Positions 5,588 to 43,526 of a DNA stretch of 64,000 nt are shown in pieces (position 1 is the first letter of the stretch; each line of letters begins with the position of its first letter). The notes below the pieces were generated by a model. That model saw only the letters and a list, made by a program, of their open reading frames with translations, did not search any database and had not been told where the DNA came from. Source of the stretch: a virus; the IMG/VR virus record IMGVR_UViG_3300035492_000030, positions 1 through 64,000 of that record. The stretch is one strand, 5' to 3'. The position numbers and the translations under genes were made by a program.

Positions 5588-6100
5588 TCAACAAGAAATT
5601 TCATTTGAAACAGCATCAATCAGCTTTCGTGCTTCTTGAATGTAGTAATCATAGTTCACATCACCTTTAAAGTCAAGAATGTTGTTACATGTCGAAACTT
5701 TCCAATCCGTGTCAATACCAAGTCTACGCCATTCTTCACCACCGTTCAAAGGAGGCATGATCTTGATTAGCTTACCACCCCCTTGCTTTACAGGATAGTA
5801 GCGGCAGATGTTTTGTTGCTCAATCACTTCACCATCTTCCATTTCAAGCACTAGACGAGATGACTTTGGTACTTTGGTTCGTAGGAAGAAATCATATTTA
5901 TCATCATGTACACGGATGAAATCCTCAAAGTCACCCATACCGAGCAAATGGTATAGAGCGGACATTGGAATAACCATAGCTGATTGATTTTTATGCCAAC
6001 CAATTTTATCAAATGGCATTACCTCATATCTACCTTTTGTTTTTATTTTACCAGACGATATAAGATTTCTAATGATTTTAACTTCTTCATCGTGCGTCAT
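5588..6100 (-). CDS. DNA polymerase C-terminal fragment (putative thumb part of split polymerase)
   Basis: 170 aa from the ATG at 6100 (GAGAGGA RBS; the ORF-track start at 6115 is TTG). GKIKTKGRYEV fits the K-G-x-E block that follows KxY in family-B polymerases. Lies directly after the HEG that terminates the polymerase ORF. Confidence 0.5.
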   Translation of the reverse strand: MTHDEEVKIIRNLISSGKIKTKGRYEVMPFDKIGWHKNQSAMVIPMSALYHLLGMGDFEDFIRVHDDKYDFFLRTKVPKSSRLVLEMEDGEVIEQQNICRYYPVKQGGGKLIKIMPPLNGGEEWRRLGIDTDWKVSTCNNILDFKGDVNYDYYIQEARKLIDAVSNEISC

Positions 6101-6740
6101 AAGGAATCCTCTCAATCATCCAACCTTTAAATTCTATCTTATTTGTCTTGTATTTAAAAAATTTACTAATACAACCTTTTAATCCGAGTTCAGAAAGCTT
6201 TTTGTAAAGCACAATTTCCTCATAATTATCTTTTCGGATTACATACTTGTATTTAGTTAAAGTCTTACTCATCAATTTGGACTGTTCATCTCTATCTCTA
6301 CGCAACCACGATTCTTTTAACTTTAAACCGTGTGAATCTCTTACACCGTTTTCCCATTCTGTTTTTAATCTTTTTGAGATTTTAATTGATGTATCTGGGT
6401 GTGTAATCATACCACCATCAGAATCATTTCTCAAATTATAACCAAAAGATTTATCGTGCGAATTGAAATAATCCATCCAGAATACTTCTCTTTCCGCAAT
6501 TATATCTTGTTCGCAAATTTCTATTATTCTGAAAATAAAATTTTCATATCCGTACTTCACCATAGATTTTAGCATGTATTCATTTATATGTTTTACAGAT
6601 TTTTTACGGAATCCTGTATTATACTGAGAATTTCTTCTGTAGAAACATTTAGTTCTACCTATATAACATTTACCATTTACGGTATTTGTTATTTTGTAAA
6701 TACCTCCACAATCCTTAAATTTTACATCTATCAATTTCAC
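6087..6740 (-). CDS. GIY-YIG homing endonuclease
   Basis: GIYKITNTVNGKCYIGRTKCFYRRNSQY (GIY...YIG...R) at the N-terminus. The start overlaps the polymerase stop by 4 nt. Confidence 0.8.
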   Translation of the reverse strand: MKLIDVKFKDCGGIYKITNTVNGKCYIGRTKCFYRRNSQYNTGFRKKSVKHINEYMLKSMVKYGYENFIFRIIEICEQDIIAEREVFWMDYFNSHDKSFGYNLRNDSDGGMITHPDTSIKISKRLKTEWENGVRDSHGLKLKESWLRRDRDEQSKLMSKTLTKYKYVIRKDNYEEIVLYKKLSELGLKGCISKFFKYKTNKIEFKGWMIERIPYDAR

Positions 6741-8425
6741 TTCTTGTCCTCTTTTACGGCAACATACGAGTTAACATCAGCAATATACATTACAGAGTAG
6801 GTGTCACCTTCCATAGTAAGACCTGTAATATCTTCCCACCATTTGACCCATTTGTCGGCTTCATCAAAATTATCAACATCACACAGATACTCAAAACCAT
6901 CTGTATTGCACATGATAATTGTTGCACCACAATGGTCAATAAGTTTTTCCATCAACATGCAAAGTGATAGCTGTCCACCAATCGTAATTGACATTGTGTA
7001 AGCAGGATCACACAGAGGGCTAAACTCGTTGTTTGAATCCCCGTACACTCCATTCAAAGCAAGCTTTAGAGCTGCGTTTGCCGCACTTCCTTTAGGGTGA
7101 CTCTTACGTTCTTCATAAAGCTCTTTATACACCTTACAGAAGGTTTCACCTAAGTGTTGAGGATAAATCTTGTTAGCAATAGCCATGTTTGGGTAATACG
7201 ATGCAACGTCAAGCGTCCGAATCTTTCGCTTATCATTGCTACGAACAGTGCCTTGAACTGCACCATGAATACCACCAACACCGTAGTCATAACGGAATCC
7301 GTTGATAACTACATTCATCGTTTCAGCTACATTGTAACACCAATAATAACTCTTTGCTCCTTTTGGGGATTTTAGTTCTTTTTCCTCAATCCAACCAAGA
7401 GGCTGCTCTTTGCGAAGCTGTGCGATTTGTTCTTCAGTTGGAACATATCGCTTATTCTTTTTATCAACTGGATCAGATAGTTTTTTCTTCTTGACCACCA
7501 TTGCTGCATATTTAGCAACTTCACCAAGATCATGTTCAAGCAAATCACTAAATACACCTTTTGTTTCAGTAATGACTTGTTTCTTGAACCAATCATGAAC
7601 GGCTTTGAACTCAGGACGATCAAATTTAATGTAAGGAAACAGACAGTCATTAATCACAATTCGATCACGTTTAGTCTGGTTAATAGTTCTACCAAACTTG
7701 TTTCGAGTGTAACAGCAACCCGGACTAACTTCTTCAAGACGACGAATGAACAGTTCTTTGCCGATCTTAGTATCATTAAAATTGGTGCAGTCAAATCCGA
7801 ATTGCTGAGTCAAATCCTCACGAAGTTTTAGCGCATCATAGGAATACCAATAGAACTTCAAAGTTTCACGAATATCATTCTTGTTATATTTTACAACAAT
7901 ATCCATTTGTTCTGGAGACAATACAGTTCCGACAGGAAACGGAAGTTCTTCAATATTCTGAGAACGCATATTAAATTCAAGCATCTTCAGAGAAGTTGAA
8001 CGAGCGGCGTTATCAAAATGGTGAACTTTAAAAAGATCAACTTGAGGAATAATTACCTCTGACTCTTTAATCTTTTTACCAAAACGGTCATCTTTCATGG
8101 AATTGATGATATCCATAGCAACTTTATACAGTTCTTTTGCTGTAATTTTAAGTTGTTCACCATCTTTCTTAGCTTTGCGTGCTTTCTCCAAAATGTAATG
8201 AATAACAGGATAGTCAAACCCCTCATTGTTAAATCCAACCATCCTATATCCACCAGCTTTTACCTTGCGAAGAAAATCAAGCATTTCTTCAGCTTCGTTT
8301 TTACGAGTGCTGATTTCAAAAACACGCTCACCTTTTCCATTAGCGTAAATTACGCCAAGGCTGAAAAAGTTCGGATAAGTCTCGATGTCGAATACCCAGT
8401 CCGTTTTAAACCACTTCTTTTGCAT
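6737..8425 (-). CDS. DNA polymerase, family-B-like, N-terminal part (exonuclease plus palm motifs A-C)
   Basis: Exo I DIETYPNFF, Exo II NNEGFDYPV, Exo III YNKNDI. Motif A LDVASYYPNM, motif B KLALNGVYG, motif C MCNTDGFEY. The ORF ends about 55 aa after motif C. Confidence 0.8.
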   Translation of the reverse strand: MQKKWFKTDWVFDIETYPNFFSLGVIYANGKGERVFEISTRKNEAEEMLDFLRKVKAGGYRMVGFNNEGFDYPVIHYILEKARKAKKDGEQLKITAKELYKVAMDIINSMKDDRFGKKIKESEVIIPQVDLFKVHHFDNAARSTSLKMLEFNMRSQNIEELPFPVGTVLSPEQMDIVVKYNKNDIRETLKFYWYSYDALKLREDLTQQFGFDCTNFNDTKIGKELFIRRLEEVSPGCCYTRNKFGRTINQTKRDRIVINDCLFPYIKFDRPEFKAVHDWFKKQVITETKGVFSDLLEHDLGEVAKYAAMVVKKKKLSDPVDKKNKRYVPTEEQIAQLRKEQPLGWIEEKELKSPKGAKSYYWCYNVAETMNVVINGFRYDYGVGGIHGAVQGTVRSNDKRKIRTLDVASYYPNMAIANKIYPQHLGETFCKVYKELYEERKSHPKGSAANAALKLALNGVYGDSNNEFSPLCDPAYTMSITIGGQLSLCMLMEKLIDHCGATIIMCNTDGFEYLCDVDNFDEADKWVKWWEDITGLTMEGDTYSVMYIADVNSYVAVKEDKK

Positions 8426-8476: not shown

Positions 8477-9070
8477 TCAGAAGTCAAGTGAATTTTGATT
8501 AAAAGCTAATCCGTGCCTATCTGTATAACCATAACCGCAAGAATTTAACTTTTCAATTTGTTTATTTCTAAATTCAATTGCTAGTTTAAAAGCAGTATCT
8601 TCACCGTATTTATCAATACTGAAATATTTACATTTTTCAATACCGTTTTCCCTCCATCTTGTCATAAAGTATTCATTACCGCAACCGTTATTCATTCTTG
8701 TAACACCTGTCACTCCGGTAGAATTTGTACTCCTTAATTTTTGATTTCTTGAATTAATTTCATTTGTTACAATCCTCAAATTAGACGGGTTATTGTTATT
8801 TTTATTACCATCAATATGGTCAATTTGATAGTTTCCATCTAAATCGTTTTCGGAATTTAAACAGTATATTATTCTATGAACCTTATAAGATTTACCAAAT
8901 AACTTTACATCGTAATAACCTGAATGGTGAAGAAATCCAGCATCGTCACCAGCTTTAAATTTAGTATTATTAGATATTTTTCTTTTCAACCAAGTTTTAG
9001 ATTCACTATCTATATAAAAATATTTTGACATTTCATCAAATGAAATTTTATTGTATTTCATTATTATCAC
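8477..9070 (-). CDS. HNH homing endonuclease with AP2-like DNA-binding domain
   Basis: IDHIDGNKNNNNPSNLRIVTNEINSRN (HNH_3-type), then STGVTGVTR...W...AFKLAIEFR (AP2-like). Free-standing between the primase-helicase and polymerase genes. Confidence 0.8.
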   Translation of the reverse strand: MIIMKYNKISFDEMSKYFYIDSESKTWLKRKISNNTKFKAGDDAGFLHHSGYYDVKLFGKSYKVHRIIYCLNSENDLDGNYQIDHIDGNKNNNNPSNLRIVTNEINSRNQKLRSTNSTGVTGVTRMNNGCGNEYFMTRWRENGIEKCKYFSIDKYGEDTAFKLAIEFRNKQIEKLNSCGYGYTDRHGLAFNQNSLDF

Positions 9071-9077
9071 CTACATT

Positions 9078-10835
9078 TTAAAAATCAACAACCATATCTT
9101 GAGATTGCTCATAATTTTTTTGGTCATGTTCATCAACAGTAGCGTAAGGATTCGCTGTTGCAAACATATGAGTTGTTGCGTGGTCATATTTTAACCATCC
9201 AGCTTCACCTGTGTTACCAGTACGACGACACTTGACAAGCTGCACCTTAGTGGCTGAACGCTTCACGGGATCGCTGTTCATCTTGTCCCGACTAATCAAG
9301 ATCGTGTTAAACGCAATTTGATTAATGCTAGAGCTACCCATAAGGTCATATTCACTGACAGCGTGTGGATCTTCCCCAGAAGGTTTACGCATGTGCGATA
9401 CAGCAATTACACTAGTATCGGTCTGCTTTGCAAACTTCAGCAGAGTGTCCATGAACTCAATAATTGCACCGTTGTCACTGCTATTAACACCCGCTTGAAC
9501 GGGATCAATGATAATTACATCACAACCCTCGGCTTTTGCGAGATAATTTAGCTTATCAAAAATCTCAGCAGTTGAGATACTACCCTGATGGTCAACGTAA
9601 ACGAATTGATCTTTCTTAGCAAGCCCCTCAAAGAATCGACGTTTCAGAGAATCAATATCAACCATGTTTCGATCAGCAGTACGCAGATTCACACCAGCAT
9701 CAAGCGACACAAGGTCACGAACAACCTCACGCTTAGTACCTTCAAGATACATTGCACCAACTTTGAACTTAGTGTTCTCAATTAAGTTATAAACAATGTT
9801 ATTAACAATCGAAGATTTGCCAATCGACGTAAGTGCCCCGATGACCGTGATTTCGCCCTTTTCGATACCCCCGTTCATCATCTCGTTTAGATGACTCCAA
9901 GCAGCAGGGAACGGAATTTTTACATTATCATCTTCATTTTCAAAATCTTCCCACATTTGGGATAGGTGCAGAATATCCACACGACTAAAAGGAACAGCCT
10001 TCCAAAAGATTTGCTTTAGTTCGCTAACACGATTCATCCGAAGAAGATCGCAAGCGTCCTTAACATCTGCTGGGAATTTAGCAATAAATGCTTTACCCGG
10101 AGAAATCAGGCGCGCGGCTTCCTCAATATAACGTTGTCCGCTTTCATCATTGTCAAAGGCAAGAATGACTTTTTCAAAGCTGTTAATGTATTCAAAATTA
10201 GCTTTGAATTGTTTGATAATACTACCGTCGCCACAAGTTACGCTAACACAAGGAGTCCAATATTCAACCTTATTACCATCTTTGTCGGTTTGTTCACTGT
10301 AAAGAACCTGAGAAAAAGCCATCGCATCTTCTTCACCCGTGGTGATTACTAGATACTTTTGACCTTTCTCAAATACAGCTTGACCAAACATTTCATTAGT
10401 AGCTTTTACACTACCAATTGCAGCAAAGTCCTTAGTTGCAATAATTCGTTTCTTATAACCTACAATCTTACCGTCTACAGTGGACGGATAGAATCGAGTA
10501 GTTGCCTCATCTTCACCTTGAATCTCAGTGCGGACACCATACTTGCGAGAAGTAATGCGAGTAATAGCGCGAGCCTTCCAACCTCGGAACTGAATCTTTT
10601 CAATATCAGAGAAGTCTACAACTTGATTTTGTTTACTTACTACTTCCACCATTTTTACTCCTGCTTCCTCTACTTTTTCAGGATTAAAATACTTATTACA
10701 AGAGAAACAAAAGGCATCAATTATATTTCCGTCATCTGTTTCTTTAGAGTATACAGCCATTGCATCAGAGCTATCACACTCGATGCAGCTTGCATGATAC
10801 ATCAGTTCACCATTATTTTCTTCGTATTTACTCAA
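9078..10835 (-). CDS. Bifunctional primase-helicase (T7 gp4-like)
   Basis: Zn finger CIECDS...CFSCNKY. TOPRIM TTGEEDAMAF / AFDNDESG. Walker A GALTSIGKSS. Walker B VIIIDPV. Confidence 0.85.
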   Translation of the reverse strand: MSKYEENNGELMYHASCIECDSSDAMAVYSKETDDGNIIDAFCFSCNKYFNPEKVEEAGVKMVEVVSKQNQVVDFSDIEKIQFRGWKARAITRITSRKYGVRTEIQGEDEATTRFYPSTVDGKIVGYKKRIIATKDFAAIGSVKATNEMFGQAVFEKGQKYLVITTGEEDAMAFSQVLYSEQTDKDGNKVEYWTPCVSVTCGDGSIIKQFKANFEYINSFEKVILAFDNDESGQRYIEEAARLISPGKAFIAKFPADVKDACDLLRMNRVSELKQIFWKAVPFSRVDILHLSQMWEDFENEDDNVKIPFPAAWSHLNEMMNGGIEKGEITVIGALTSIGKSSIVNNIVYNLIENTKFKVGAMYLEGTKREVVRDLVSLDAGVNLRTADRNMVDIDSLKRRFFEGLAKKDQFVYVDHQGSISTAEIFDKLNYLAKAEGCDVIIIDPVQAGVNSSDNGAIIEFMDTLLKFAKQTDTSVIAVSHMRKPSGEDPHAVSEYDLMGSSSINQIAFNTILISRDKMNSDPVKRSATKVQLVKCRRTGNTGEAGWLKYDHATTHMFATANPYATVDEHDQKNYEQSQDMVVDF

Positions 10836-21891: not shown

Positions 21892-22017
21892 CAATAGATA
21901 AAGCCTATTGACGCGATAGAATCTTTCAATCAATAAAAAGCTTTACATCACACTCTGATTTTGGTTTAATAGCTTCAACAGCAAGGCACAACGCCTAGCA
22001 AAGCCGGAGTAACGGAC

Positions 22018-22368
22018 ATGACCAAGCAAGAAATCCTCTTCCAAGCCAAAGCTCACGAACGCTTCCAACGTGAACTGGCAGAAGCTAACAACGAACTGAT
22101 GCACTGGGACATCTCTGATGTTCTGAACGAAGAATACGAAGTTGAAGTGTTCCACGTGGAACAAACCAAGATTGAAGTAGGCTCCAAAGTGACCATGATC
22201 AATGATCTCCCGGTAGCATGGTTCAAGAACAACCGTTCCAAAACCTACCCGGTTAACCTCACTGGTATAGTGACTAAAGTGTTTAAAAATGGTCGAGTAG
22301 CCCTTCGGGTTAAGGAGCTGGACAACAAGAGCATGAACTACCCGATGACCGAGCTAACCCTCATCTAA
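22018..22368 (+). CDS. Hypothetical protein
   Basis: 116-aa ORF with GGAG RBS. Contains the 16-bp palindrome TGTTCCACGTGGAACA at 22148-22163. Confidence 0.6.
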   Translation: MTKQEILFQAKAHERFQRELAEANNELMHWDISDVLNEEYEVEVFHVEQTKIEVGSKVTMINDLPVAWFKNNRSKTYPVNLTGIVTKVFKNGRVALRVKELDNKSMNYPMTELTLI

Positions 22369-22388
22369 TTCAATTGGAGAGTGTGACA

Positions 22389-22511
22389 ATGAACATCAAA
22401 ACCACTATCAGCATGTACCTCAAACAAGCCAAGAAGTACAAAGCTATGAACCTTCCTGTGCAACGTAAGAATGCTACCGAGTTTGCTTTGTTCTATAGAA
22501 AGATGCGTTAA
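22389..22511 (+). CDS. Small basic hypothetical protein (40 aa)
   Basis: TGGAGAG RBS 7 nt upstream of the ATG. Followed by a terminator. Confidence 0.35.
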   Translation: MNIKTTISMYLKQAKKYKAMNLPVQRKNATEFALFYRKMR

Positions 22512-22529
22512 CACACAAATACATAATAT

Positions 22530-22556
22530 AGCCCCTCTCAGTAGGGGCTTTTTATT
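22530..22556 (+). terminator. Rho-independent terminator ending the rightward early block
   Basis: AGCCCCT-ctcagt-AGGGGCT followed by TTTTATT. Confidence 0.7.
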
Positions 22557-22559
22557 GCC

Positions 22560-23270
22560 TATTATTCAGCCCTCACATGAGGGCTATTACATGCCCATTA
22601 ATAGCGTGCATGGTGCACGCACAATCGCACGCTATGCGTGCTCTGCACATGTTCCACGTGGAACATACACAACGCTTTTATGCCCATTAATAGGCTGTTA
22701 TATGCTGCCCGTAACGTAGATGTGTTTGTTAAGCATATTCCTTTCTCAATATCAACTCTTTCTGTTAACCAACAGTTAACTAATACATAACACATCTTCG
22801 ATGTTATATATGCCCATATAACAACATATATGTAACACATACTCTTATGTTGTTATGGGGTATTACATTGTCTCTTATTACATGTAACACCATACAAGAG
22901 ACAATATATTAGTTCCTATATTATGCCCAGTATTAGCTGTCCATTGGACAGCACATTTAGGCGTACTCACGCCTGAATAGCCCTAATGGGCATAATGCGC
23001 CATAGGCGCTACACACTACGCCAATCCTACCCACTGGGTAGGTATAGGCTAGCGAAAGCAAAGCCCCTGTGGGGCTATCCTGGCCCATATGGGCCTATTA
23101 ATGCCCATGTATTAACCTAATGATATTTTATCATTTGATTTTATAAAATGGGTCGGCACATGGGGTGCCGTTAAACCCATCAGATACCTATCCAAGAATT
23201 ATAGAATATAGGAATATTTCTTATTGATATTATGCCCATGAAAAGCGAATAACACATGTGAATGTGTTGT
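22560..23270. repeat. Non-coding field of >=16 short unrelated palindromes/hairpins plus about 7 copies of ATGCCCAT
   Basis: See findings. Examples: 22604-22620, 22649-22666, 22818-22856, 22867-22905, 22936-22952, 22997-23009, 23026-23042, 23082-23095. ATGCCCAT at 22591, 22680, 22810, 23101, 23232, ATGCCCAG at 22923, inverted copy at 22986. Confidence 0.85.
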
Positions 23271-23401
23271 GAGATTTTTAGGGGGTTGGGTAGAAATATA
23301 AAGACGAAGTCTTATTCTTGTCTATATACTCTACCACGGATCACTACCTCCAGAGTTCATCAGTGTTTCAGACGATCAATTCTCCAAAAAAGGGGACGAA
23401 A

Positions 23402-24094
23402 TTATTTAACTGAAGGAAACAGCTTATCTGGGTGTATTCTGCACTCACTGTTATTGTTATAAGCGAGTACAGATATTTCTTTCATTGCTTTTAGAATGCT
23501 GTCTTTACCTTTCAGGAATGGGTTGTGTTCATCTCTAGTCATTAGGTGTTCAAGGTCATCCCTGATTACAATTGACTGTAGATAGTGTTCTTTAGCAATC
23601 TCCAGTAAAGACATATCACCTCTCCAAGAAAGTAGTGGATTCACTCTGATTACAATATCACCTCTAAATGGGATATTTCTGTATGACACAGACAGGATGG
23701 TTCCTTCTAAAGACTTCAACACTTCTGCAAGGTGTTTGGATTCAATACACTCGGATAGGTGTTTGATATTTCCAATGTAGTAATTCCATGCTGTAATATT
23801 TTCAGCTAGGAATGTGATTAGTTTGATTTGTCTTTTAGTGTAGTGTGATACAGCACAGGCTAGTAGATATTTGCTGTTAATTAGTGGCTTGTTCTTTATG
23901 TAAGGGTCGATGTTCTCTAAGGATTCAATCAGATGGTCTTGTGTCTTACACTCAGAAGGCCATTTGGTTTCTATTCCAATGTATTTCTTGTAGTGTGATT
24001 TCTTTCCTTTTGGTCTCTTTGTTTCTATGATTTCTCCTGTAAGATCATCAATTAGGAGTGGTCTGTGTTTCTCGTCGTGTTCCAATTTTAACAT
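23402..24094 (-). CDS. Hypothetical protein, possible wHTH DNA-binding protein; paralog of 36190..36744
   Basis: 230-aa ORF. Shares TGEII/TGEVV, WPSEC/YPSEC, ITFLAENITAWN/IKFLSLNVVAHN and VNPLLSWRG/MNPVLMYKG blocks with the 36190 ORF. Confidence 0.6.
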   Translation of the reverse strand: MLKLEHDEKHRPLLIDDLTGEIIETKRPKGKKSHYKKYIGIETKWPSECKTQDHLIESLENIDPYIKNKPLINSKYLLACAVSHYTKRQIKLITFLAENITAWNYYIGNIKHLSECIESKHLAEVLKSLEGTILSVSYRNIPFRGDIVIRVNPLLSWRGDMSLLEIAKEHYLQSIVIRDDLEHLMTRDEHNPFLKGKDSILKAMKEISVLAYNNNSECRIHPDKLFPSVK

Positions 24095-24114
24095 TTATGT
24101 TCTCCAAATATAAG

Positions 24115-24136
24115 AAACCCTCAATTAAGAGGGTTT
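24115..24136 (-). terminator. Hairpin terminator (works in both orientations)
   Basis: AAACCCTC-aattaa-GAGGGTTT with T-runs on both sides. Overlaps the stop of the 24121 gene. Confidence 0.5.
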
Positions 24137-24321
24137 TTATTATTTTCTAAATATTCTGAATATCTTTTCTTTATCTCTTTACCAATACGCCCGCCTTGGT
24201 CTAAATGCCAATCCACCTCTTTCCATCCAAACCAATATTTCTTTTGAATAGAATACACAAATTCGTGTGACTTTTCAAATCCCCTATCGTTTACTTGTCT
24301 TACAATGCGATATTTAGTCAT
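24121..24321 (-). CDS. Hypothetical protein
   Basis: 66 aa from the ATG at 24321, which abuts the upstream stop. The ORF-track start at 24405 overlaps the upstream gene. Confidence 0.45.
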   Translation of the reverse strand: MTKYRIVRQVNDRGFEKSHEFVYSIQKKYWFGWKEVDWHLDQGGRIGKEIKKRYSEYLENNKNPLN

Positions 24322-28573: not shown

Positions 28574-29296
28574 CTACAATTCAGATACGTCATTCAGTAT
28601 AGCACCTTCTCCATGAATTTCAACAGCTTTCTTATTATAAGCCATGGCTGCTTCCTGTTCGGATGCAAACTGACCTATCCAAATATATCCACCATTTCCG
28701 TCTCCAATTCTAGCAACCCAAGGTTTATTCCTATCTTTACTAAAAGATACCCCTCTATATTTTGAAGTATTCTTTTCTGTCTTTTCTTGTCGACGATTAT
28801 ATGACTGAGTACGCCTGTTTGACCATCTACAATTTTCTTTACAATAACCTCTATCTACATCAATCCTGTCTAAAGAAGTTCCTTCTGGGCGTTCTCCCAT
28901 GTCGTGTAGAAAATTTAAAAATCCATTAGGGCTTTCCTCTAACCAAGATTCTTCTTCTACAATAATCCCCCTACCACCATAATTTTCCCAACCAAGCCTT
29001 TTATCATTATAGCACCTGTGCATCATCGCAATAAAACTTTGATATTCGGGAGTATTTTTACCATCTTGATAACCACCATGCTTTCTATTTGATTCCGAAA
29101 GCATTTGACTTGTTGCGCAACCACAGGATTTTGTACTACCGTTTTTAAGACGCTGATGAGTTGTGTCATGTAAATTACCACAATCGCATTTACAAGTCCA
29201 TTTCTTTGACTTACTATAATCCTGTGCTCGGTATAAAACCGTCAGCATACCGAATTTAATTCCTTCCAGTTTAAGTTTTCGTAAAGCCATTTTCAA
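28574..29296 (-). CDS. Homing endonuclease (degenerate HNH DRID..GY..NCRW plus AP2-like domain)
   Basis: CKCDCGN...SCGC zinc motif, GERPEGTSLDRIDVDRGYCKENCRWS, then SKYRGVSF...WVARI (AP2-like). Paralog of 42612..43526. Confidence 0.65.
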   Translation of the reverse strand: MKMALRKLKLEGIKFGMLTVLYRAQDYSKSKKWTCKCDCGNLHDTTHQRLKNGSTKSCGCATSQMLSESNRKHGGYQDGKNTPEYQSFIAMMHRCYNDKRLGWENYGGRGIIVEEESWLEESPNGFLNFLHDMGERPEGTSLDRIDVDRGYCKENCRWSNRRTQSYNRRQEKTEKNTSKYRGVSFSKDRNKPWVARIGDGNGGYIWIGQFASEQEAAMAYNKKAVEIHGEGAILNDVSEL

Positions 29297-36189: not shown

Positions 36190-36744
36190 ATGAGCTTTGA
36201 AAACGTAAAAGATAAGAACGTAGTTCTTGTAGTCAACACAGAAACAGGAGAGGTTGTTTCAAAAGTCCACACCAAAGAAAAGTTTGCACCACTACCGTTG
36301 GTATTTACAGAGAAGGGTAAATATGTTGGTGTGGATGTAAAATACCCAAGTGAATGTCTGTGTGCTGAACAATATTTTGATGCAGTATGTCAATTGGACG
36401 GACTTGCAACCAACAAAGTGAAGGTGAACACAGAAATGGTTCTTGACAACGTAGCAGAGGGGTTGTGGTCTGTTGGCGATGTTAAGATGATTAAATTCTT
36501 ATCCTTGAATGTAGTAGCGCATAACAGGGTATTCACAACCACTAAGGAGATTGAAGAATCTCTTAACGTTAGGAGTAGTCATCTGTCAAGATGGTTTAAG
36601 AACAACACAGGAATTTGTAAGGTAGTGAAGAAAAGAGGTACATTGATCATTGACATGAATCCTGTGTTGATGTATAAAGGCTCAGAAGAGTGGAGATCCT
36701 ACCATCTCTCTGTATGGTGTTCACAAATCCCTTATATTAAGTAG
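36190..36744 (+). CDS. Hypothetical protein, possible wHTH DNA-binding protein; paralog of 23402..24094
   Basis: 184-aa ORF with AAAGGAGGTAGT RBS. Conserved blocks shared with the 23402 ORF (see that entry). Confidence 0.6.
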   Translation: MSFENVKDKNVVLVVNTETGEVVSKVHTKEKFAPLPLVFTEKGKYVGVDVKYPSECLCAEQYFDAVCQLDGLATNKVKVNTEMVLDNVAEGLWSVGDVKMIKFLSLNVVAHNRVFTTTKEIEESLNVRSSHLSRWFKNNTGICKVVKKRGTLIIDMNPVLMYKGSEEWRSYHLSVWCSQIPYIK

Positions 36745-40392: not shown

Positions 40393-42210
40393 GTGACAAA
40401 TCTTACAGAAAATAGCGTATGGGAAAGTGGAATCTATCAACTAGAAACAGATGATCCTACCCTCGGCGGTCCTCCCGGTTTTAATCTTGGTGAGCCAGTA
40501 ACGGGACATGCTAATGCTCAAGCCCAGCAACTAGCTAATAGAACCTCTTATCTAAAAAATACACATGAAGTTTTTGTTTCTGATCTCGCCAACGCAACCG
40601 ACCCGGCGAAGGGGGCGGGGTTAGTTGGGTGGAACCGTGGAACCGTGCATAGTGAGTCCCGCGACTTGGGTGAAAAAGCTAGAACAGAGCAACGATCTGT
40701 TCTCGACTTCATCCCGAAATCGCAGCACTCGGCAATCCTGGGTGGCACTTCTACGTGGGACGCTTCTGCCGCCGTCAACTACGCAATCAGAGAATTGGGC
40801 GGTGGCGAGATCTTAATCCCTAAAGGAGTCAGGCTTGCCATCGCTGCGCCTATAGACATTATCAGGGGCACACTACTGAAAGGTGGTGGTCCTTTCGATG
40901 ACGCGGCCGGAGTCGGTTCCAAGATATACTTGCTACCGGGATCGAACTGCCCCATGCTCCGAACTCCAGCAGCGATCCTTGGAGCATCTGCTGCGACCCA
41001 TTTCATGGGACTGGAGAATCTACTTTTCGACGGCAACAAATCCGGTCAGACGGTTGAAAGTGAAGCTGTCCAGTTCCACGGGGTATGGGTTGGTAGTTGG
41101 TTGCGCAATATAGCAATCCACAATGCGCTTGGGTCCGCGCTCACTCTACAGGCAGGCAGCGACCTAGAGATTGATCACCTATGGATTCTCGGTACTCAGT
41201 CCGAGTCTGGTTATGCGTTTGACACGAACAAGGATATTGCTACAGGTGCGCAAGGTCTACTGAATATCAATCACATGTACGTCGAGAATACCAGCAACAA
41301 GGCTGGTGGCGCACCGCGCACGGTTGAAGCTGATCGGGGGAAAAACATCCGACTGCACCGCCTGGTTACGTGCAATATCAACGAGGTGCACACCGAGGGT
41401 GCTTTGAGGCCGATAGACCTTGAGGCCAACCATTTAGTACGTATCGGCAAGGTTTCTGCGGCTTTCTGCGGAGTCGCTGCTGAAGCGGACAGCGCCATCG
41501 TGCGCAACGTCGGAAACGGGAATAGATCAATATCCATCGGGGCAATGGAGTCTTATCGGCACGCAGATGGAACTAAGTTCGTCGGACTATCGGCAGGAAC
41601 AACGTCGAACAACTTCCAAGAACTCCCTATGGAGAATCCAACCGTCCCATATGTTGGCGGGTATACGGCGGTCAATGCTGATGGCTACGGAACGCAACGC
41701 CAAGCGCCGACGATCTTCTCCCGCTCCGGTGGCGTCCAAGCCGTAGGGGGCGCAGCAACATCTACTTGGCGTTTCTACAATTCCACATTGGGATCAAGTC
41801 ACTATCTCAAGCAGAACGGGCAAACTCTTTCCATTGGATCGAATTGGCTTCAACCAAGCTCCGCTGACAAGAACTTCATCGACATTTTTAGTTCAGGTAA
41901 TGCGGGTGACAGGGTAGACATCAACGTCCCGTTCCGACTTCCAGCAAGATCTTCTGCAAACACAATTGCAGCCACGGCAATGTGGCGTTGCGATACAAAT
42001 GTCGGCTTTGGTGTTGGTCCAGTGTACCAACGATCCGTAGGGTCTAATGCTGACGCAGACACTATAGCGACAGTTAGAAGGGGATCAGGTGCTCCTACTA
42101 TTTCTGCAGATTATATCGGCCAGCAATATGTGGACATCACGAACAGGGCTGGCTACATGGCGGTTAACTTTGGCACAGGCGCGACCGACTGGAAGCAAGT
42201 AACTGCATGA
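40393..42210 (+). CDS. Tail fibre/tailspike with conserved N-terminal anchor and GC-rich beta-helix-like (depolymerase-type) body
   Basis: 605 aa, GTG start with GGAGAAATAA RBS. N-terminus SVWESGIYQLETDDPTLGGP...ANAQAQQLANRTSYLKN is a common tail-fibre N-terminal block. GGGEILIPKGVRLAIAAPIDI fits a pectate-lyase-type start. GC content rises sharply from about 40575. Confidence 0.7.
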   Translation: MTNLTENSVWESGIYQLETDDPTLGGPPGFNLGEPVTGHANAQAQQLANRTSYLKNTHEVFVSDLANATDPAKGAGLVGWNRGTVHSESRDLGEKARTEQRSVLDFIPKSQHSAILGGTSTWDASAAVNYAIRELGGGEILIPKGVRLAIAAPIDIIRGTLLKGGGPFDDAAGVGSKIYLLPGSNCPMLRTPAAILGASAATHFMGLENLLFDGNKSGQTVESEAVQFHGVWVGSWLRNIAIHNALGSALTLQAGSDLEIDHLWILGTQSESGYAFDTNKDIATGAQGLLNINHMYVENTSNKAGGAPRTVEADRGKNIRLHRLVTCNINEVHTEGALRPIDLEANHLVRIGKVSAAFCGVAAEADSAIVRNVGNGNRSISIGAMESYRHADGTKFVGLSAGTTSNNFQELPMENPTVPYVGGYTAVNADGYGTQRQAPTIFSRSGGVQAVGGAATSTWRFYNSTLGSSHYLKQNGQTLSIGSNWLQPSSADKNFIDIFSSGNAGDRVDINVPFRLPARSSANTIAATAMWRCDTNVGFGVGPVYQRSVGSNADADTIATVRRGSGAPTISADYIGQQYVDITNRAGYMAVNFGTGATDWKQVTA

Positions 42211-42611: not shown

Positions 42612-43526
42612 ATGATAGAAGATAGGCCGAAGGGATTTGTTGATTACACAGGGTTTAAAACTGGTAAAGTAACAGTCCTTGAATTCCACTCTTGGCATGT
42701 TCAACCAAGTGGTCAACGAAAGTCTAAATGGCTTTGTCAGTGTGACTGCGGAAACAAGTTTGTTGCTCTTGGATACAACATTAAGAAAGAAGGTCATACT
42801 ACTTCTTGTGGTTGTGAAAAGAAAGTAACAATTAAAAAGTTTTGGGCAAAAGTAAATTCAGGTGAATGGGTTCCAGAGAAACTTATTGGTGAAAGATTTG
42901 GTAGGCTTTTTGTAAATGGATTCAGTCATTGGCATGAAAGCGAATCACAAAGAACATCCGTATGGGATTGCACTTGTGACTGCGGTAATACAGTGAAGAT
43001 GCGACGTCCATATCTAATGAGTAATGAAGTTTCAAGCTGTGGTTGTTATAAATCAGAAATTCTTTCCGCACTGCAAACAAAACACGGGATGCATGGAACA
43101 CCTACTCATAAATCTTGGACGAAGATGAAAGAGCGGTGCCTATCAGAGTACTATAAAGAGAAAGAGTATTATCAAGACAGAGGTATTACAATCTGTCAAG
43201 AATGGATTGACTCTTTTGAAGCGTTTTATGCAGACATGGGCGAACGACCAGAGGGAACTTCTTTAGATAGGATTGACCCTAATAAAGGTTACTATAAAGA
43301 AAATTGTCGATGGTCTGATCTTACTATCCAAGCGTACAATCGCAGGATGAACACCAATAACACATCAGGTAGGACTGGCGTCTATCAACTTAAAAACGGC
43401 AACTGGCAAGCAATTATTGTCCACTATAAAGAAAGAATCACATTAGCATATGATGTTTCCTATGAGGAGGCTTGTAAAGCGAGAGAAGAAGGAGAGTTGA
43501 AATACTATGGCTGGACAAAACAATGA
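42612..43526 (+). CDS. Homing endonuclease (degenerate HNH plus AP2-like), paralog of 28574..29296
   Basis: Two CxCDCGN...SCGC repeats, GERPEGTSLDRIDPNKGYYKENCRWSD, NTSGRTGVY...WQAII (AP2-like). Its 3' end overlaps the terminase start. Confidence 0.65.
   Translation: MIEDRPKGFVDYTGFKTGKVTVLEFHSWHVQPSGQRKSKWLCQCDCGNKFVALGYNIKKEGHTTSCGCEKKVTIKKFWAKVNSGEWVPEKLIGERFGRLFVNGFSHWHESESQRTSVWDCTCDCGNTVKMRRPYLMSNEVSSCGCYKSEILSALQTKHGMHGTPTHKSWTKMKERCLSEYYKEKEYYQDRGITICQEWIDSFEAFYADMGERPEGTSLDRIDPNKGYYKENCRWSDLTIQAYNRRMNTNNTSGRTGVYQLKNGNWQAIIVHYKERITLAYDVSYEEACKAREEGELKYYGWTKQ

Follow-up and report, generated by a model that had tools for sequence, protein, structure and literature searches.

The DNA analysed here, a window of 64,000 nucleotides (positions 1 to 64,000 of the IMG/VR virus record IMGVR_UViG_3300035492_000030), is part of a tailed-phage genome whose genes are arranged in four transcription blocks (Table 1). 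At the point where the plus-strand and minus-strand early-gene blocks converge lies a field of non-coding DNA (22560-23270) that is packed with short palindromes, and it is this field that we followed up. The region most likely belongs to a lytic Pseudomonas-type phage; the terminase subunit TerL encoded in the window is 82% identical to that of Pseudomonas phage vB_PsaM_M1 (M1), about 63% identical to those of phiPMW and vB_PpS_SYP (SYP) and about 40% identical, over 99% of the length, to that of the PaP1/PAK_P1 group. The original prediction had offered four possible roles for the field: a replication origin, a packaging or terminus region, a protein-binding platform, or a transcribed hairpin array.

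The borders of the gap are as first described, a plus-strand terminator at 22530-22556 on one side and a minus-strand stop codon at 23402 on the other, and no credible open reading frame (ORF) lies between them, none having been called there on two independent public contigs that are identical over 22000-24200. Counting as hairpins all perfect inverted repeats whose stem reaches 6 bp or more and whose loop does not exceed 6 nt, the non-coding gap 22512-23401 holds 18 (20.2/kb), compared with 1.96/kb in the remaining window, and the field is the top 750-bp bin for hairpin density in the 64 kb. When 22560-23270 was folded as single-stranded DNA, an energy of -133 kcal/mol was obtained, against -78 ± 5.4 for dinucleotide shuffles (z = -10.2). 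The abundance of palindromes is real and far above chance. Every palindrome listed in the original prediction was present where it had been placed, although the stem is just 4 bp at 22980-22991 and just 5 bp at 22997-23009.

The stems are perfect Watson-Crick palindromes with centres of 0-3 nt, the same on either strand and with no strand asymmetry. The 6-mer GCGTGC is common to the palindromes at 22604-22620 and 22627-22641, inverted in one and everted in the other. GC skew, taken on the plus strand, is negative over 22350-23150 and positive over 23200-23350. A T-run is present at 2 of the approximately 20 hairpins, at 22530-22556 (plus) and weakly at 23076-23062 (minus), and the roughly 18 that remain have none; the field is not an array of intrinsic terminators, and the earlier view that simple termination is insufficient to explain it stands. 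Nor is it a known RNA: an Rfam search over the whole window gave nothing at gathering thresholds, with best scores at E <=10 of about 20 bits against thresholds of 35-95, and ARAGORN found no tRNA. Mimicry of a clustered regularly interspaced short palindromic repeat (CRISPR) was dropped, the sole hint being CRISPR-DR28 at 19 bits against a threshold of 35. Hairpin promoters of the N4 type were also dropped; stems of 5-7 bp with a 3-nt loop agree with their geometry, but the gene for a virion RNA polymerase is not in evidence. A search of the field against 50,697 phage records with megablast and blastn returned no nucleotide match. We rejected a repetitive extragenic palindrome (REP) or a transposable element of the miniature inverted-repeat type (MITE), since every palindrome differs in sequence and the field has no blastn match in the phage collection.

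Dispersed among the palindromes is the octamer ATGCCCAT, of which six exact copies, the total for the window, all fall within 22591-23239, where about 1.6 would be expected per 64 kb; none of 100 shuffles reached six. We recovered the octamer, its variant ATGCCCAG at 22923 and the duplicated 14-mer ATGCCCATTAATAG (22591 and 22680) exactly as they had been reported. Spacings between the repeats are 89, 130, 113, 63, 115 and 131 bp, one copy is inverted, the 14-mer is the longest duplicate, and the approximate consensus of the dispersed repeats is ATTATGCCCAT. A metagenome scan with TTTTTAGGGGGTTGGGTAG gave five matches, all unrelated and attributed to chance.

One of the palindromes, at 22649-22666, has as its core the 16-bp sequence TGTTCCACGTGGAACA, which is identical to the chromosomal parS2/parS3 sites of Pseudomonas aeruginosa and matches the consensus for ParB. 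The original prediction overlooked this identity, as well as a second perfect copy at 22148-22163. By our own estimate about 3e-5 hits would be expected by chance in 64 kb, and a shuffle control allowing up to three mismatches gave a mean of 0.26 matches. According to Jecz et al. (2015, PMC4368675), ParB has its highest affinity for the parS2/parS3 sequence, one copy of which, supplied with parAB, is enough to stabilise a plasmid. Unlike the P. aeruginosa sites, the two in the window lie in a virulent-type phage genome and not beside oriC, and binding of ParB to them is predicted from the sequence. Neither ParA nor ParB was found among 22 window proteins scanned against Pfam, a scan that was not exhaustive. 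The SYP field holds one perfect parS and one with one mismatch, while phiPMW has three copies with one mismatch each, of which two fall within the field. An IMG/VR scan with TGTTCCACRTGGAACA matched more than 119 stretches, none related to the window phage; among the matches listed, the parS-like pattern is mostly a perfect palindrome. Separately, in an unrelated 59.5-kb viral contig (IMGVR_UViG_3300028026_000006, 1-900), a parS-like TGTTCCACATGGAACA edges a non-coding palindrome-rich stretch.

Table 1. Features of the palindrome field and of the blocks around it (coordinates of the window).
Feature	Position	Strand	Remarks
Replication genes	1-11 kb	minus	
Small early ORFs	11-22.5 kb	plus	
Second perfect parS TGTTCCACGTGGAACA	22148..22163	.	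in 116-aa ORF 22018-22368 (encodes ..VFHVEQ..); exact match, 502 bp upstream of the field copy
Intrinsic terminator closing the plus-strand early block	22530..22556	+	hairpin and T-run; stem scores on the minus strand too
Left cluster of three G+C-rich perfect palindromes	22568-22585, 22604-22620, 22627-22641	.	without T-run
Dispersed ATGCCCAT repeats	22591, 22680, 22810, 23101, 23232	+	candidate sites for a phage protein
Dispersed ATGCCCAT repeat, inverted copy	22986	-	candidate site for a phage protein
Perfect parS TGTTCCACGTGGAACA	22650..22665	.	core of palindrome 22649-22666; exact match
A+T-rich core	22690..22930	.	29-34% G+C
Long A+T-rich inverted repeats in the core	22818-22828/22846-22856; 22861-22876/22896-22911	.	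first pair 11 bp, perfect
Variant ATGCCCAG	22923		confirmed
Right cluster of G+C-rich palindromes	22936, 22959, 22980, 22997, 23026, 23062, 23082 (span 22936..23095)	.	pitch 15-25 bp
Three more palindromes	23119-23135, 23138-23149, 23154-23170	.	not kept in relative L007
Block conserved with relative L007	23225..23401	.	about 97%; contains palindrome 23251-23268
G-rich motif TAGGGGGTTGGGTAG	23279..23293	+	variants in M1, phiPMW and SYP, near the minus-block side
Small ORFs, cell-wall hydrolase (25904), dCMP deaminase, PhoH, ClpP-like protease (30924)	23.4-36 kb	minus	
Terminase (TerL 43507), portal, tail genes	from 36 kb	plus	

M1, phiPMW and SYP each have a gene-poor gap of 0.9-1.5 kb at the convergence of the same two blocks, and in all three this gap has the top palindrome density within the sequence examined, with 16.0 palindromes/kb against 1.9/kb elsewhere in SYP, 11.1 against 2.3/kb in phiPMW and 6.9 against 1.8/kb in M1. 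As to whether the palindromes or just their positions are conserved in related phages, the position is kept in all three, whereas the palindrome sequences differ from phage to phage; a 6-bp stem with a 3-nt centre is frequent, and the palindrome TGTTCCAC(G/A)TGGAACA recurs, being common to the fields of the window phage and its relatives. Likewise, a short word of its own is restricted to the field in each phage: ATGCCCAT six times in the window phage, AGAATGATT four times in SYP, AATACCCC three times in phiPMW and TTATTCTTT three times in M1. LexA boxes were considered in M1 and dropped, the spacing being wrong.

A closer comparison is given by L007, a relative whose contig ends at the equivalent of window position 22970 and which is 88% identical to the window in the neighbouring gene and region, rising to about 97% over 23225-23401, where the G-rich motif lies. 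In L007, 4 of the 5 G+C-rich hairpins that can be aligned persist, with one compensatory A:T to T:A change, one change restricted to the loop, one bulge and one G:T, while L007 lacks the three hairpins at 23119-23170, of which two are A+T-rich. Two of three ATGCCCAT copies are kept exactly, with altered flanks.

Gene order places the field with respect to phages whose ends are established. The PaP1 genome runs from its left end through a minus block (hydrolase, ligase, dCMP deaminase, ClpP) to a divergent point and TerL, and closes with a plus block of small ORFs that reaches the right end; in parallel, the window runs from the field through a minus block (hydrolase, dCMP deaminase, PhoH, ClpP-like) to a divergent point at 36 kb and TerL. 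The PaP1 ends were mapped by run-off sequencing and its terminal redundancy is 1,190 bp (PMC3652863), and the records of EM, C11 and K8 label the homologous stretch a terminal repeat. A direct terminal repeat (DTR) of 608 bp is known from the Felix O1-like phage UAB_Phi87 (PMC4837284). A syntenic relative thus has a mapped DTR, and the shared order, together with ends mapped or annotated in relatives, makes the field the positional counterpart of a DTR.

The resemblance extends to the palindromes themselves. The PaP1 DTR carries 13.4 palindromes/kb against 2.2/kb and is the densest 1,190-bp window of the 91.7-kb genome (Poisson p = 2e-8). In an alignment of the non-coding part of the region from 12 Pakpunavirus genomes, 96.9% of columns in palindrome arms are invariant, compared with 65.6% in other non-coding DNA (Fisher p = 8e-16) and 73.5% in the loops (p = 1e-4). 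In all 12 genomes, 8 of the 10 hairpins are perfect, while their centres vary (GACA/GGA, TG/TA/CA, GGA/GAA, TGCC/TCCC/TTCC). Since the arms are invariant and the centres variable, the arms are selected for sequence as well as symmetry; judged from this alignment, they show strong purifying selection while loops and flanks drift. This pattern is better matched by palindromes that bind protein, or by DNA hairpins of specific sequence, than by generic RNA stems.

A G-rich motif offers a further point of comparison. In five Pakpunavirus records whose last base is that of the physical genome (PaP1, PaoP5, C11, MAG1 and PT07), the motif GGGTTAGGGTAG stands 11-18 nt from the right end, and the window motif TAGGGGGTTGGGTAG equals the PaP1 form TAAGGGTTAGGGTAG at 12 of 15 positions. 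From this we predict that the right boundary of the repeat in the window phage lies at about 23305-23325. The SYP record OQ183418 (106823-107173 and 1-980) was opened within the field and its ends are identical over 351 bp, which as a sign of a DTR is suggestive only; the SYP motif lies about 95 nt outside this overlap. In PaP1 (HQ832595) we also noted the 10-mer AGCGACAGCT at 90136, 90536 and 91640, three copies in the genome and all in the terminal region; one is about 10 nt inside the left DTR boundary and an inverted one about 75 nt inside the right, so that the repeat is bracketed by inverted copies.

Taking together the relatives' terminal repeats, the palindrome enrichment of the PaP1 DTR and the motif near the ends, the packaging or terminus role is the best supported of the four first offered. 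We consider that the field is probably the non-coding region of the terminal repeat, or concatemer junction, in a myovirus whose packaged DNA is of unit length and carries short DTRs, as in PaP1-like and Felix O1-like phages. Several points weigh against this reading. The fixed ends of the window phage and their boundaries are inferred from relatives, and the role of the palindromes is putative. With PaP1, whose ends are mapped, TerL shares just about 40% identity. The 351-bp overlap in SYP does not abut the G-rich motif and may have arisen in assembly rather than mark a true DTR. The junction is not where the M1 and phiPMW records open, and the ends of M1 do not overlap. The public contigs L008 and L009, identical over 22000-24200, run straight through the region, which is expected of a collapsed DTR and is not positive evidence. 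In L007, stems are conserved overall no better than other positions (0.71 against 0.715). Finally, M1 and PaP1 have no parS, which indicates that parS is not essential to the region.

If the field is a terminal repeat, its parts may act as follows. The palindromes would work on DNA and not on RNA, either as symmetric sites for protein binding or by forming hairpins or cruciforms when the ends are single-stranded or being processed. The ATGCCCAT repeats would constitute an array, specific to this phage, that a packaging or end-binding protein recognises, much like the P1 pac hexamers and the lambda cosB R sites, and terminase would cut to the right of the G-rich motif, at a distance of a few tens of bases. 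The parS sites would load host ParB onto incoming or replicating phage DNA, where it could position, condense or partition that DNA, or titrate ParB off the host chromosome. A protein-binding platform is compatible with this scheme, given that one palindrome is a host parS and that arms are conserved in sequence in the related family. More tentatively, and as a possibility only, the field may be a telomere-like genome end of a virulent Pseudomonas-type myovirus lineage, a terminal repeat made of a mosaic of individually selected palindromes and phage-specific repeats, together with perfect host parS sites that would load the ParB-CTP clamp and, through it, ParA or SMC. An end of this kind could serve to partition the genome while the phage persists in a carrier or pseudolysogenic state, to organise DNA during replication, or to draw ParB off the chromosome of the host.

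A replication origin, in which the A+T-rich segment 22690-22930 would serve as the unwinding core between flanking, structure-prone G+C-rich palindromes and the ATGCCCAT copies as initiator sites, seems unlikely to us. The core is indeed 29-34% G+C, which would suit an origin, the repeated 8-mer is restricted to the field, and the authors of the PaP1 study placed a putative origin at the genome end, based on GC skew only. The field shares with the iteron origins of plasmids and phages (oriV and Rep) a repeated short motif, an A+T-rich segment and a nearby gene for a possible DNA-binding protein, but the repeats are 8-mers dispersed at 63-131 bp in both orientations, in place of tandem 17-22-bp iterons, and no DnaA box occurs in the field at up to one mismatch; it is not an iteron origin of the classical kind. 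Candidates for the initiator would be the 230-aa protein encoded next to the field (23402-24094, minus) and the 36190-36744 (plus) product, which are paralogs (26% identity, E = 9e-17); the 36190 paralog alone gives a faint RepL match that falls below any threshold (E = 0.17), and the AlphaFold model is unusable. The adjacent gene has no homolog there in M1, phiPMW and SYP, relatives that do have the field, and its product has a single homolog, 97% identical, among 5.8 billion proteins. Forks leaving a convergent junction would, moreover, run head-on into both flanking transcription units. With tandem repeats and a conserved adjacent initiator both missing, the iteron origin first proposed is weakly supported. 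An origin and a terminal repeat are not mutually exclusive, since an origin could sit within or beside the repeat.

The two remaining explanations are both, in our judgement, very unlikely. One sees the field as a transcriptional buffer, in which hairpins in read-through RNA of both blocks would stop polymerase, block 3' exonucleases or give processing sites and so prevent antisense read-through. Its position between converging blocks suits such a role, as do the bona fide terminator at 22530-22556, the weak minus-strand one at 23076-23062, a G:U-compatible transition in one L007 stem and the GC skew, by which the RNA entering from either side would be C-rich and G-poor, that is, rut-like. However, T-runs accompany just two hairpins, the 0-3-nt centres of perfect Watson-Crick palindromes are too tight for RNA loops, strand asymmetry is lacking, and a buffer leaves unexplained the parS sites, the ATGCCCAT repeats and the Pakpunavirus arms, which are invariant and do not covary. 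In PAK_P3, RNA-seq found all predicted genes transcribed except one at the predicted genome terminus (PMC4933390), which argues against a transcribed hairpin array; together with the empty Rfam search and palindromes that are identical on both strands, it disfavours that part of the original prediction. The other explanation makes the field a landing pad or sponge for host factors, independent of packaging, where each palindrome would recruit or titrate a different dimeric host protein, with parS and ParB as the recognisable case. The perfect parS sites speak for it, and invariant arms with variable centres, as in Pakpunavirus, are what dimer binding sites would show. The SYP field adds its four copies of AGAATGATT, of which the longer form GAGAATGATTATC resembles a Fur box, agreeing with the consensus at 11 of 13 positions. 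Yet no known operator was recognised among the other palindromes, their sequences are wholly different between related phages of related hosts, and M1 and PaP1 have the field but no parS; a sponge for host factors beyond parS is speculative.

As a probable terminal repeat, the field can be set beside known genome ends. The Pakpunavirus DTR shares with it the junction position, the largely non-coding content, the top palindrome density, a confined short word, a G-rich motif near the right boundary, which in the window phage is a predicted one, and a homologous TerL; it differs in that there is no nucleotide similarity and all palindromes are different. The PaP1 repeat carries an HNH gene and no parS, while the window field carries parS and no gene, and here the terminal redundancy is predicted. 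In the T7-type concatemer junction, the terminal repeat is flanked by short repeat arrays and a hairpin intermediate occurs in end formation, and P1 pac and lambda cosB contain repeated terminase-binding sites. The field resembles these in being non-coding DNA, at a presumed genome end, with a phage-specific repeated word and inverted repeats able to form hairpins during end processing, but its palindromes are far denser and more diverse than those described there.

Short terminal repeats are usually seen as featureless bookkeeping of phage genomes. Here the terminal region, mapped or predicted, is the palindrome-densest part of the genome in two groups, PaP1 on the one hand and the window phage with SYP, phiPMW and M1 on the other. 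Pakpunavirus is the sole family with enough genomes to test selection on the arms, and that selection points to unstudied cis-elements by which ends are recognised or protected or concatemers processed. Phages of this group are in wide use for Pseudomonas therapy. With perfect host parS sites, virulent phages would offer a simple and testable example of chromosome-segregation machinery being borrowed from the host by a virus. Our literature search found no report of host-type parS in virulent phages, nor of palindrome-rich terminal repeats, and both the palindrome-rich nature of these repeats and the host parS within them appear to be undescribed. Palindrome density and the G-rich motif could help to find termini in assemblies of such phages.

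The genes around the field are in part unusual. Each of the two paralogous genes, 23402-24094 and 36190-36744, is the first gene at its block boundary, and neither was assigned to a Pfam or PHROG family. A tblastn search with the 230-aa protein matched none of the phage records, and M1, phiPMW and SYP lack a counterpart. The earlier label of this protein as a winged helix-turn-helix (wHTH) is neither confirmed nor rejected by its single-sequence AlphaFold model, whose predicted local distance difference test (pLDDT) score is 35. An IMG/VR scan for closer relatives with a nearby cell-wall hydrolase gave matches of at most 35% identity. Downstream of the gene for the 230-aa protein, in the block conserved with L007, a sigma-70-like promoter match on the minus strand (23324-23295, TAGACA-18-TATATT) would read into a C-rich stretch and the hairpin 23251-23268; a small RNA arising from it is possible.

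Elsewhere in the window, genes of homing-endonuclease type (GIY-YIG, and HNH plus AP2) were found at 6087-6740, 8477-9070, 28574-29296 and 42612-43526. They adjoin or separate core genes, namely those for DNA polymerase (6737-8425), primase-helicase (9078-10835) and TerL, and the DNA polymerase region may be split by them. The segment 41001-42000, with a G+C content of 52% against about 40% for the window, lies within a 605-aa tail-fibre-like ORF (40393-42210) whose match to a tail-fibre family is limited to the first 70 or so residues; its G+C-rich part may be a horizontally acquired receptor-binding part.

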